A DNA stretch of 64,000 bases. Source: a virus. Location of the stretch: the IMG/VR virus record IMGVR_UViG_3300010413_000010, positions 1 through 64,000 of that record. One strand, written 5' to 3'. Positions 24,276-45,096 of this stretch are shown here, piece after piece; position 1 is the stretch's first letter; every line of letters starts with the position of its first letter. The notes beneath the pieces were generated by a model, which ran no database searches, was not told the origin of the DNA, and saw nothing but the letters and a program-made list of their open reading frames with translations. A program made the translations under genes and the position numbers.

Positions 24276-24793
24276 TGGATGCCAACGAAGAAGCAATTAG
24301 AACTATTGACTTATTCATCGACTCTACAATGAAGCGATACAAATCGATCTTCAAGGCTTCTGCTAAGAAGATATCGATATACATAATCGATAATACGCCG
24401 ATCTACTTCGAAGAAGTAGACACCGCAGGTCGCACAAAAGCCAACTGGAACATCGCCCTGGATTCTCCCGACCTCTCTAATAACTTAGAGATGACAGACA
24501 GAACCGGTGATACGACAAAATCGAAAATACGCTCTGCAGTTCAGAGTATGAAATTGTCAAATGATTCCACCATCTACTTGGCGAATACAACACCGTGGAT
24601 TCTGATGCTGGAGTACGGGATGTACCCGAATCCTTCAAAGGGCTCTAGGAACCCTGTCACAGGGGATTTGGAAGTGCGTACAATTAACGGTTACTCCAAA
24701 CAAGCTCCTTATGGAATGGTCAGAATTAACGCTGCCCGTTGGCAGGAAATTGTAAGAGAAGAGGCTGCGCGAAAAGGCACCATTGTAGAATAA
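24275..24793 (+). CDS. tail completion/neck protein (HK97 gp10-like)
   Basis: TP..GRTKANW, LEYG, GYSKQAPYGMVR. Confidence 0.8.
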   Translation: MDANEEAIRTIDLFIDSTMKRYKSIFKASAKKISIYIIDNTPIYFEEVDTAGRTKANWNIALDSPDLSNNLEMTDRTGDTTKSKIRSAVQSMKLSNDSTIYLANTTPWILMLEYGMYPNPSKGSRNPVTGDLEVRTINGYSKQAPYGMVRINAARWQEIVREEAARKGTIVE

Positions 24794-24831
24794 ATCACAT
24801 ATGACATCTCCAATTTCTTATTGGAGATTTT

Positions 24832-25260
24832 ATGACAGCATTTGAGATCGAAAAGGCTTTAAATGCCCAACTAGTGCGGTATGCCACAGAGATTGCCAAT
24901 TCTATCGGTGTTGATAACATCGCTTGGGCAAACCACACCTACACCCCCGTCATTGATACTCCTTACATCATCCCCGATTTTATCGCAGCCATGACCCGTT
25001 CTGTCGGAGTAGGGCTGGGTACTCCGAACAGGGTGACTGGGTTTTATCAGCTTGACGTATTCACCCCCTCGAATCAGGGGAAGGGTGATCTTTTGAAAAT
25101 CGTAGATGATCTCCACGAGTACTTCAAACGTGGAACTTCTATCACACATGACGGCACGGAGGTGCGGATTACTAAGTTCCGGCCTGGACCCTCCTTTGAC
25201 AGAGAGGCATGGTTTGTTCAGACAATCCAGATCGATTTTCGTGCTGATCTCGAAAACTAA
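24832..25260 (+). CDS. tail terminator protein (DUF4128-like)
   Basis: IAWAN, GFYQLDVFTP, YFKRGT. Confidence 0.75.
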   Translation: MTAFEIEKALNAQLVRYATEIANSIGVDNIAWANHTYTPVIDTPYIIPDFIAAMTRSVGVGLGTPNRVTGFYQLDVFTPSNQGKGDLLKIVDDLHEYFKRGTSITHDGTEVRITKFRPGPSFDREAWFVQTIQIDFRADLEN

Positions 25261-42818: not shown

Positions 42819-43070
42819 ATGAAACTCACAAAAAACATAGCAGCGGTAGCGCTGCTGGTGCTCCTGTTGTCTATGGGGATTGTCTTCATGGTCCAGGACG
42901 CAGAGGGTGCAATCTGGAATGACTACTTTAATTTTGCAAAGTGGTATATCGGTGTCTTCTTCAGTGTGAAACTCTTGGGCGATACCGTAAAGTCTGTCTG
43001 GTATAGACCAGAACTTGACCCGAATAACACGAAGGCGCCGGACAAAGAAGCCAATGAAGAAGTTTGTTAA
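42819..43070 (+). CDS. putative holin (2 TM)
   Basis: 83 aa, two hydrophobic helices, charged tail, first gene of the lysis cassette. Confidence 0.55.
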   Translation: MKLTKNIAAVALLVLLLSMGIVFMVQDAEGAIWNDYFNFAKWYIGVFFSVKLLGDTVKSVWYRPELDPNNTKAPDKEANEEVC

Positions 43071-43893
43071 CTGGATAAAGAAGTACGCGACTATCATCCT
43101 GCTCGGTATCATCTCGATACTGGGCGGGATAATCGCAATCATGAGTAGAGGAAGTAGAGATGAAGAAGATAGTACTGATCATAATGATCCTGACCTTATC
43201 AACCGCGATATTGCCAGCCATCGATCTACCGAATTACGGGATCGAACCAGACAGGTGGTACGAAGGATTTTTAATAATCGAGGCGTTGAACGAAATCCAG
43301 ACGCTGACGGAGACGGCAATAGAACAGGCAGTGGAGGAGACCAGCCAGGAGTACCTGGAGCGGCTGGAGAAAGCACTGCAAGCGGAACAGGAAGCAAAGC
43401 AGAAGGAACGAATGTGGATGGGTCTCGGTATCGGATCAGCGGTGACGGCAGTAGCCTCAATTCTAACATTGATCCTATCACAGTAGATGATGTAGGGTTT
43501 CTGGATTACCTGGAAGGCCCTACCATCAAACGCTACGGTGAGAAGCTCCTCACACTTCTGGCTCCGCTTCAGCTCCATTCGAGGAAACTCACCGCAAAAG
43601 AAATTGTTGAAATTTATAACCAGGGGAGGAAAGACCCATCCATTATGGATCGGCAGTGCCGTCTTGGTAAAAACGGATATTTAGTAACCTACCATGCCCG
43701 AAAGATTCTGGGCTTGTCCCACTACCTCACCGATGCTGGTGATAACTCAGACTTCCTCTTGCAAGGGTACAACTATGGGTCACGGTGCGGTTACATCATC
43801 AAGGATAAAGAGGGAAGGGTACTCTATGTCTCTTCCCCCTTACGAAAAACTGACACTTTATTTTCGGTAGACTGCTACCGGTGGGAGGAGTAA
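43054..43893 (+). CDS. N-terminally anchored protein (i-spanin-like outer gene) with disordered linker and globular C-domain
   Basis: TM IILLGIISILGGIIAIM; TAATG coupling to the amidase; hosts embedded gene 43160..43486. Confidence 0.6.
   Translation: MKKFVNWIKKYATIILLGIISILGGIIAIMSRGSRDEEDSTDHNDPDLINRDIASHRSTELRDRTRQVVRRIFNNRGVERNPDADGDGNRTGSGGDQPGVPGAAGESTASGTGSKAEGTNVDGSRYRISGDGSSLNSNIDPITVDDVGFLDYLEGPTIKRYGEKLLTLLAPLQLHSRKLTAKEIVEIYNQGRKDPSIMDRQCRLGKNGYLVTYHARKILGLSHYLTDAGDNSDFLLQGYNYGSRCGYIIKDKEGRVLYVSSPLRKTDTLFSVDCYRWEE
43160..43486 (+). CDS. embedded gene: signal peptide, coiled coil and C-terminal TM (spanin-like)
   Basis: MKKIVLIIMILTLSTAILPA|ID; EQAVEE..LERLEKALQAEQEAKQKER; GLGIGSAVTAVASILTLIL; purine-rich RBS. 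Confidence 0.65.
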   Translation: MKKIVLIIMILTLSTAILPAIDLPNYGIEPDRWYEGFLIIEALNEIQTLTETAIEQAVEETSQEYLERLEKALQAEQEAKQKERMWMGLGIGSAVTAVASILTLILSQ

Positions 43894-44432
43894 TGCTCCA
43901 CATAAACAAAAAGAGCCGCCCCGGAAAGAAGCGACTCTCTACTAAGAAAATTATCATTCATTATACTGGAGGGAATTACCGTAGCCTCGATGAGCTGGAA
44001 AAGTACCTGGCCGGAGAGCATAGATTTGGCGGTTATACCCTGGCGGTGGACGATGTAGGAATCCGGTTGTTTGCTCCGCTGGATGAGATGACTCCCCACG
44101 TTGGTGGGGAACTACTCGATGACTATGAGCGAATCTTCGGTCCTACCAAGATGATCGACGGCTACAGTATCCAGAACTGGCACACCCTCGGGATTTGTTA
44201 CATCCACCAGAACTGGACCGGTGAGCCCTCGAAGGAAACCTACGATGTTCTGGTCAATGTGGTTGCTTCGCTCTGCAGACAGTATGGCTTGTCGGAAAAC
44301 GATGTAGACCGGCATTTTGATGTAACCGGTAAGAAATGCCCGAAGTACTATTCAGAGTCTGGAGCTCTTTGGACACGGTTCCGTCAGGATGTACGAAAAG
44401 CCATCTTTGAAAGACGGCACTATGTGATATAA
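43893..44432 (+). CDS. endolysin, N-acetylmuramoyl-L-alanine amidase (Amidase_2)
   Basis: IIIHYT, DEMTPHVG, RHFDVTGKKCP; SD GGAGGAG. Confidence 0.9.
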   Translation: MLHINKKSRPGKKRLSTKKIIIHYTGGNYRSLDELEKYLAGEHRFGGYTLAVDDVGIRLFAPLDEMTPHVGGELLDDYERIFGPTKMIDGYSIQNWHTLGICYIHQNWTGEPSKETYDVLVNVVASLCRQYGLSENDVDRHFDVTGKKCPKYYSESGALWTRFRQDVRKAIFERRHYVI

Positions 44433-44437
44433 AAGTG

Positions 44438-44462
44438 AAGCCTCCCTTTCGGGAGGCTTTTT
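44438..44462. terminator. intrinsic terminator at the junction of the convergent late and middle blocks
   Basis: AAGCCTCCC-TTTC-GGGAGGCTT-TTT. Confidence 0.8.
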
Positions 44463-44466
44463 GTAT

Positions 44467-45096
44467 TTATGCACCGCCAAGTCGTCTTCGGCGTTCCTCT
44501 TTAAGTTTCTCGTAAGTTGTATCTCTGTATTCAGAGAGGAAGGCTTTTAATTGTGCGAACTGCTCAGGTTCAAGTGTAATAGGGTCGTTGTAATATTGTA
44601 AAGTCAACTGACTGGAGTTCACAACGCTTTCGATAAAGCCGTCTGTATTTATAGGATACAGCCCAATCTGCTCCATCACTTCCCCGCCATATATGACATC
44701 TCGGGAAGGATTGTCATCAGTGAGTGTGGCAAGACCGCTGTCTGTTTTAAACTTCACTTCCCCACTCATAAATCGCCATCTAGGGCCTTTATAGATAATG
44801 CGGAGTGCAAGCATTTTACCGATCCCCTGCACTGGGGTTTCAAGCGTTACAATAGAGGCTTCAAGTTCAACATTCCAAGGAGCGCCCCAGTACCCACCTT
44901 CGAGCGTGAGTTCGTCCAATCTGACAATGTAAGATGACCGTTCAATGTCATCATTGAATTGGATGTAGGTCCGATACTCATACTTTGTTCCCGGCACCGG
45001 TTTTGTTTCATAACCGGTCGGCCCAATAAGCATCGACATGCAACCAGTTAAACTGATGATACACAGCACCAGACTTGCAATAAAAGGTCTTTTCAT
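44467..45096 (-). CDS. lipoprotein
   Basis: MKRPFIASLVLCIISLTG|C lipobox; SD GAGGAG. Confidence 0.75.
   Translation of the reverse strand: MKRPFIASLVLCIISLTGCMSMLIGPTGYETKPVPGTKYEYRTYIQFNDDIERSSYIVRLDELTLEGGYWGAPWNVELEASIVTLETPVQGIGKMLALRIIYKGPRWRFMSGEVKFKTDSGLATLTDDNPSRDVIYGGEVMEQIGLYPINTDGFIESVVNSSQLTLQYYNDPITLEPEQFAQLKAFLSEYRDTTYEKLKEERRRRLGGA

Follow-up and report, generated by a model that had tools for sequence, protein, structure and literature searches.

A pair of genes in overlapping frames lies between a putative holin and an endolysin in a phage known from metagenomic DNA, which raises the question of whether a spanin-like step of lysis may be carried out by proteins that belong to no annotated family. 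Among phages of Gram-negative hosts, ~13–15% are without a recognisable spanin (PMC6139136; bioRxiv 10.1101/515445), and the sole known alternative to a spanin is the disruptin peptide (bioRxiv 10.1101/515445). The stretch of DNA analysed here, referred to as the window, is taken from an IMG/VR viral record of 98.6 kb, of which it covers the first 64 kb; the completeness of the record is estimated at 59%. The only sequencing run listed as a holder of this DNA is a marine sediment metagenome, from which the DNA may itself derive, and no RNA holder is listed. In the reading preferred here, to which a probability of about 0.6 is given, the locus holds a genuine overprinted pair in a late lysis operon, and the two products would serve the envelope step of lysis.

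On the plus strand, a 1527-aa tail-fibre-like gene is followed by the putative holin, the outer and inner genes of the pair, an Amidase_2 gene, and a bidirectional terminator, after which come convergent genes on the minus strand. The putative holin (positions 42819–43070, plus strand; 83 aa) has two hydrophobic segments and a charged C-terminus, and its role is assigned from position and shape; it matches no Pfam or PHROG family, and homologs of 75–78 aa occupy the same position in two related loci, L002 and L003. Its 3′ end overlaps the start of the outer gene by 17 nt. The outer gene (43054–43893, plus strand) encodes 279 aa and is defined by its ORF and translation, its homologs, and an AF2 model. 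Wholly within it, in the +1 frame at an offset of 106 nt, lies the inner gene (43160–43486, plus strand; 108 aa), exactly at the coordinates and in the frames that the first-pass annotation had given for the pair. A Shine-Dalgarno-like GAGGAAG (43148–43154, plus strand), read from the sequence, lies within the coding sequence of the outer gene, 5 nt 5′ of the inner ATG. The segment encoding the outer C-terminal domain (43471–43890, plus strand) runs up to the outer stop codon, which overlaps the ATG of the amidase gene in a TAATG junction.

The amidase gene (43893–44432, plus strand) encodes a single-domain Amidase_2 endolysin of 179 aa. Its product scores 46.7 bits against Pfam PF01510 (E 5e-12), above the gathering cut-off of 26 and thus within the family, and it also matches PHROG 1794 (amidase) at E 1e-19. 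The adjacency of the outer gene and the amidase gene recurs in L002 and L003, as does the order of holin, pair, and amidase, and in 3/3 lineages the amidase has no wall-binding domain. Amidases of this kind are more typical of the phages of diderm hosts. Directly after the amidase gene, the late operon is closed by a bidirectional terminator-like hairpin (44437–44460), which has a 10-bp stem (6 GC pairs) and, on the plus strand, a T-run.

An exhaustive HMMER search recovered eight full-length homologs of the outer protein (274–300 aa, 34–44% identity), together with three further homologs from other metagenomic phages that consist of the C-terminal domain alone (131–144 aa). The family alignment contains 12 sequences. 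Homologous DNA represents three lineages, namely the window, L002, and the L003–L007 group, and six more full-length outer homologs are available as proteins only (Logan/ENA/JGI). The outer proteins of the three DNA lineages are 34–37% identical. Scans of viral contigs with the outer protein, or with the amidase alone, gave no further homologous DNA, a metagenome scan added nothing beyond close variants of L003, and a degenerate DNA pattern of the inner motif matched only two IMG/VR contigs, both already in the sample. Genome contigs gave no match to the outer alignment; with the amidase alignment they yielded just Lachnospiraceae amidases of 30% identity, which are uninformative on the host. 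The outer protein found no match by tblastn against 50,697 phage records, and a profile search of PDB sequences also found none. Neither the outer nor the inner protein matches a Pfam or PHROGs family, and both protein families are unannotated. The inner gene is, moreover, missed by gene callers: when 5.8 billion non-redundant predicted proteins were searched through a word index, its product turned up as one call only (ENA call P0017), and a separate search gave no extended forms of the inner protein.

The outer protein begins with a basic N-terminus followed by a helix or transmembrane (TM) segment at residues 2–32 (AF2), with the TM anchor at ~11–30. By the positive-inside rule, this anchor is predicted to be N-in, which is the topology of an i-spanin. 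Beyond it, pLDDT falls below 50 at residues 34–45 and 76–133, and a linker of ~65 disordered residues extends over about 75–140. The first-pass annotation had described the outer protein as disordered exactly over the overlap; this is roughly right, but a predicted helix at residues 46–74, which is conserved, also lies inside the overlap. The globular C-terminal domain that had been proposed alongside is well supported, residues 140–279 being modelled as an alpha+beta fold with pLDDT >90.

The fold of this domain appears to be papain-like or DUF261-like, with no invariant Cys or His. When residues 125–279 were compared by VIA-align, the top rows were nearly all papain-fold enzymes (C39 peptidases, DUBs, ATG4, staphopain, and the pseudomurein endoisopeptidase PeiR), at modest Z scores of 5.1–6.2. 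Foldseek gave no PDB match at E 0.001 or better, and BFVD gave a single match, to an unnamed 141-aa viral protein (E 0.01). In the ESM Atlas, the domain lies beside DUF261 and C39 clusters, with a feature score of 0.96 and a structure TM of 0.57/0.64 over 114 residues. A loose resemblance to DUF261 had been suggested at the first reading; it is partly borne out, in that the ESM Atlas points to a similar fold, but not at the level of the Pfam HMM. None of the 12 family members matched Pfam DUF261 (PF03196; gathering score 26.1 bits), even at E up to 10, and a six-frame search of the record with the DUF261 HMM found no match; the positive control, cp32-1 P0018, scored 227.7 bits. An hhalign comparison of the domain with the cp32-1 protein was collinear end to end, but with a probability of 1%.

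The DUF261 protein of Borrelia burgdorferi cp32-1 (BB_RS06020) shares with the outer C-terminal domain a length of ~140 aa, a phage or prophage origin, and its neighbourhood in the ESM Atlas. In contrast, the Cys and His that hhalign places at papain-like positions of DUF261 are not conserved here, and the cp32 gene stands alone, outside a lysis cassette. Neither Cys nor His occupies an invariant or near-invariant column when the 12 sequences are aligned, and there is hence no conserved catalytic pair; the residue after the invariant G162, where DUF261 has Cys in the hhalign alignment, is variable. The domain differs in the same way from the C39 and papain-like proteins of clan CA, from which it is further set apart by its modest Z scores and by the lack of a sequence match to solved structures. 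Since no Cys or His is invariant, it is probably a pseudo-peptidase or binding module whose catalytic Cys and His have been lost, rather than an enzyme.

The history of the locus bears on the same domain. In L006, the C-terminal domain block alone has been swapped for an allele that is ~27% diverged, and the divergent block begins at the inner stop codon and fades out over ~100 nt at the start of the amidase gene. Because it is exchanged as a block, the domain appears to be a separate module, in agreement with the existence of stand-alone C-terminal domain proteins. Such modularity would also fit a history in which the outer gene arose by fusion across an inner gene that was already in place.

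The inner protein has a short, basic, and hydrophobic N-terminus in all three lineages. From a reading of its n-, h-, and c-regions, residues ~1–21 form an apparent cleavable Sec signal, with a short h-region, a Pro before the small residue at −1, and no Cys. Directly after the signal comes a near-invariant stretch, LPNxG...WYEGF, within a conserved mature N-terminus at ~23–42, and the products of all three lineages then share a predicted long helix. At the other end, the last 20–22 residues are hydrophobic in 3/3 lineages (KD 1.9–2.5), with the TM segment at ~86–107, in keeping with the hydrophobic C-terminal helix described at first reading. The AF2 model, which is of low confidence (pLDDT ~50), places a helix at residues 2–16, a loop at 17–29, and a helix at 30–107. 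The absence of Cys, which had been remarked for the signal peptide at first reading, holds for the whole inner protein, both in the window copy and in L002 and the L003–L007 group.

The defining features of spanins (Kongari et al., 2018; PMC6139136) provide a measure for these products. The gene layout is that of an embedded two-component spanin, with the smaller gene in the +1 frame of the larger and both in a lysis cassette. As with lambda Rz/Rz1 (PMC6139136), the small gene is wholly embedded in the larger lysis gene, the larger product is anchored by a type II TM segment at its N-terminus, and the embedded gene has its own Shine-Dalgarno sequence and an N-terminal export signal. However, the proteins themselves are different. 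An i-spanin has a coiled-coil periplasmic domain, and Rz has two coiled coils, whereas the outer protein has one helix (46–74), ~65 disordered residues, and a globular alpha/beta domain. Rz1 is a Pro-rich outer-membrane lipoprotein, whereas the inner protein has no lipobox and no Cys, is predicted to be helical, and ends in a TM segment. The order of genes is also distinct, here being holin, pair, and endolysin, and there is no sequence similarity to Rz or Rz1.

The comparison with u-spanins has a similar outcome. The inner protein has the C-terminal TMD of a u-spanin, and like T1 gp11 (PMC6139136) it combines an N-terminal export signal and a C-terminal TM with the absence of periplasmic Cys. 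Unlike T1 gp11, it has no outer-membrane lipoprotein signal with a lipobox Cys, which u-spanins need (as do o-spanins); u-spanins have a beta-rich periplasmic domain, where the inner protein has one long helix in a low-confidence AF2 model (pLDDT ~50), and its gene is embedded in another gene. Nor is either product of the type of the phiKT gp28 disruptin, a small cationic amphipathic peptide (bioRxiv 10.1101/515445). As judged from sequence and predicted structure, neither product fits the definition of an i-, o-, or u-spanin. In the 98.6-kb record and the related loci, no canonical spanin, small lipoprotein, or u-spanin candidate was found; at an estimated completeness of 59%, the record may lack a part that holds a spanin. 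Two lipoproteins, one of 209 aa encoded on the minus strand next to the amidase gene and one of 146 aa in L006, were considered as spanin parts and rejected, as they are not homologous and have no C-terminal TM.

A lysis-related role for the pair is likely, because it lies between holin and endolysin, its start and stop codons overlap or abut those of its neighbours on both sides, this arrangement is found in three diverged lineages, and the operon ends after the amidase. In the mechanism proposed, the outer product would be a type II (N-in) inner-membrane protein in which a fast-evolving disordered linker carries a papain-fold domain. The inner product would be translated from its own Shine-Dalgarno sequence in the +1 frame of that linker and exported by Sec, yielding a helical mature protein of ~85 residues that is held in the inner membrane by its C-terminal TM and exposes the conserved N-terminal motif. 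Both products would face the periplasm or wall compartment and would act at the envelope step that follows the holin and the amidase, either as a spanin equivalent or as an accessory to the endolysin or holin. The domain at the end of the long linker, the conserved N-terminus of the inner protein, or both, would engage the wall or the outer layer.

Disruption of the outer membrane, which the first-pass annotation had proposed for an atypical diderm envelope, is the leading specific mechanism, but it can be put forward only tentatively. That no canonical spanin was found in the record is compatible with such a mechanism without proving it. Both predicted anchors are apparently in the inner membrane, with no outer-membrane tether evident, and this placement counts against outer-membrane disruption. 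The host is also relevant to the question. The nearest relatives of the terminase are in phages of proteobacteria (39%), and the nearest cultured-phage relatives of the amidase are the catalytic domains of Bacillus and Listeria phage endolysins (~31% identity). Because these amidase relatives are Firmicute-phage endolysin domains, the host may be a monoderm, which would have no outer membrane to break.

The closest rival, little less probable than outer-membrane disruption itself, accepts the pair as real and as part of lysis, with the products acting as a lysis regulator or endolysin accessory rather than as an outer-membrane disruptor. It may be imagined in three variants. In one, the tethered and catalytically dead peptidase-fold domain would target the amidase, which has no binding domain of its own, to peptidoglycan or activate it there, in the manner of degenerate LytM factors. 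Degenerate LytM factors activate cellular amidases. In the other two, the pair would be an antiholin or holin accessory, or would act in the periplasm, as T4 Spackle does, to guard against lysis from without. Several features already described speak for such a role: the TAATG junction couples translation of the outer gene to that of the amidase gene, the amidase is without a wall-binding domain throughout the three lineages, the peptidase-like fold has no invariant Cys or His, and both products look as though they are anchored in the inner membrane. The exchange of the C-terminal domain as a cassette is also what would be expected of a surface- or wall-recognition module, and the inner protein gives an echo of Pfam T4_Spackle that is weak and non-significant (E 0.1). 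On the other hand, no homology was found to any known antiholin, releasin, Spackle, or amidase activator, the putative holin offers just short loops to a periplasmic regulator, and the comparison with LytM factors is one of analogy.

It is improbable that the pair is real and unrelated to lysis, as a moron or superinfection-exclusion module carried within the late operon would be. The fact that DUF261 of Borrelia cp32-1 adjoins an integrase, far from blyA/blyB, would suit such a module. What would not suit it is that three diverged lineages have the pair directly between holin and endolysin, its start and stop codons overlapping or abutting those of each neighbour.

These readings take both frames to be genes, and for the inner frame the length of the ORF is not in itself telling. 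When the outer protein was held fixed and its synonymous codons were resampled, a +1 ORF of this length appeared in 6–21% of trials. This follows from the composition of the outer linker, in which few residues have T at codon position 2 and +1 stops are accordingly rare. It could be argued from this that the inner ORF is no gene, that its frame is open through the hydrophobic-poor composition of the linker, and that its conservation mirrors that of the outer protein. Any linker poor in K, E, and Q can indeed yield hydrophobic +1 stretches, and the stretch that encodes the conserved inner motif also encodes one that is conserved in the outer protein. Four kinds of evidence make this explanation highly unlikely.

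First, the features of the inner gene are at fixed places in diverged DNA. L002 and L003–L007 both carry a +1 ORF of 106 codons in the corresponding place (the window copy having 108 aa), and AGGAG stands 9 nt 5′ of the inner ATG in L002 and L003, so that a Shine-Dalgarno sequence precedes this ATG in 3/3 lineages. Under a null in which only the outer protein is maintained, both hydrophobic ends of the inner product occurred together in ≤0.07% of resamplings (P ≤0.0007) in each of the three lineages. Second, the inner protein is better conserved than the outer protein over the overlap, with BLOSUM scores per residue of 1.54 vs 0.78, 1.55 vs 1.07, and 2.64 vs 1.92 for inner vs outer, and the 45 residues at the start of the inner protein are conserved better than any other part of the locus. 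Third, the variable overlap sites among L003, L005, L006, and L007 all fall (10/10) at outer codon position 1, equivalent to position 3 of the inner codons; the chance that ten of ten sites fall on one named codon position is (1/3)^10. Each of these sites alters the outer protein and is silent for the inner protein in at least one variant, and the changes in the same four variants amount to 11 non-synonymous and 0 synonymous for the outer frame, as opposed to 1 non-synonymous and 10 synonymous for the inner frame. Fourth, the codon usage of the inner frame is coding-like: over the overlap, the codon log-likelihood is −4.06 per codon in both frames, compared with −4.34 for the +1 frame of a true gene. 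Conservation and the substitution pattern, rather than length, argue decisively for the reality of the inner gene.

Two further analyses were dropped as evidence. A codon-choice DP found the inner motif to be encodable by 6/6 of the protein-only homologs, a result that is circular with the conservation of the outer motif, and a test of achievable hydrophobicity was close to saturation and fell short of significance for most of the proteins. As a separate observation, the achievable-hydrophobicity window sits 5–13 residues before the C-terminal domain in 8/9 proteins.

For the outer frame, the resampling was reversed. With the inner protein fixed, the outer frame stayed open across the overlap in just 0.1–0.2% of codon resamplings (P 0.001–0.002), and it is open in 3/3 DNA lineages and in six more full-length proteins. 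The C-terminal domain has no ATG, GTG, or TTG in frame near its start in the window, L002, or L003, and between L007 and L003 it has accumulated 21 synonymous and 3 non-synonymous changes, which is the mark of purifying selection. Hence, it is most improbable that only the inner gene and a separate C-terminal domain gene are real and that the long outer frame is an annotation artefact joining an upstream TM mini-ORF to that domain through an accidentally open frame: stand-alone proteins of 131–144 aa do exist in other metagenomic phages and the linker is almost free to evolve at the protein level, but against this stand the open frame kept at such odds, the missing start codon, and the conservation of the N-terminal anchor and helix motif.

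The dual coding is therefore very probably genuine. A comparison of selection on the two frames across homologs had been proposed in the first-pass annotation, and its outcome points to selection on both, because the outer frame is kept open against the odds, the C-terminal domain is well folded and has no start of its own, and the inner protein is conserved. The substitution pattern further indicates that the outer linker need only stay open and that the inner frame sets the sequence. The architectural reading of that annotation, a real embedded +1 pair in a lysis cassette whose inner product is not a lipoprotein, is borne out by conservation, by the pattern of substitutions, and by the absence of Cys.

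Embedded pairs in lysis cassettes are known already; what sets this one apart is both protein families, the absence of a lipoprotein, and the domain make-up of the outer protein. The locus is a clean phage example of overprinting under opposite regimes, in which the inner protein is conserved and the outer linker is free as long as it remains open. It presents a conserved, doubly selected, and unannotated pair exactly where a spanin-like function is expected, a candidate lysis accessory of a new kind, with both products small enough for complementation testing in E. coli. A bolder and rather doubtful extension of the preferred reading is that the pair, or the inner protein alone, would provide a lipid-anchor-free third route to the final step of diderm lysis. 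The inner protein, a C-terminally anchored helix cleaved by signal peptidase, might use its conserved aromatic and hydrophobic mature N-terminus in the manner of a class I viral fusion peptide, aided by a binding domain that is tethered like those of TonB or TolA and encoded in the overlapping frame. If true, this would be a new class of spanin equivalent, hidden from annotation by overprinting.

In the outer gene, the C-terminal domain, which probably has a papain-like or DUF261-like fold, is exchanged on its own between two close variants of the related phage loci, L006 (1753-2260) and L003 (5412-5920), which are near-identical elsewhere. The L006 allele of this domain is approximately 27% diverged from that of L003; 53 of the differences are non-synonymous and 55 are synonymous. 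Divergence begins at the stop codon of the inner gene and dwindles within the initial ~100 nt of the amidase gene. The replacement appears to reflect cassette-like recombination, or diversification, of the domain.

The L003 lineage also carries a 94-aa ORF with two TM segments (L003:4522-4806, + strand; also present in L004-L007), which overlaps the putative holin and sits immediately upstream of it. This ORF, possibly encoding an additional holin or an antiholin, is missing from the window and from the related locus L002.

Directly past the amidase terminator, and convergent to the amidase, lies the gene of a predicted 209-aa lipoprotein (44467-45096, - strand; lipobox LTGC), which lacks a C-terminal TM and matches no Pfam or PHROG family. 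A 146-aa transglutaminase-like lipoprotein is encoded downstream of the amidase in L006 as well, at a distance of ~0.5 kb, but the two proteins are not homologous. The only other lipoprotein predicted in the 98.6-kb record is a 282-aa protein encoded past the window end (89585-90433, + strand; lipobox ISGC).

As read from sequence similarity, the host signals of amidase and terminase conflict. Among cultured phages, the single-domain amidase (43893-44432, + strand) has its closest relatives in Bacillus and Listeria phage endolysins, namely their N-terminal catalytic domains (~31% identity), whereas the terminase is closest to counterparts from Pseudomonas, Salmonella, and Acinetobacter phages (39%).

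In Borrelia burgdorferi cp32-1, the DUF261 gene (24609-25034) is flanked by a DUF244 gene and an integrase, distant from blyA/blyB. Its sequence contains a Gly-Cys pair followed further on by a His, at positions that may correspond to a papain-like active site; on that reading, DUF261 would be a candidate cysteine peptidase family.
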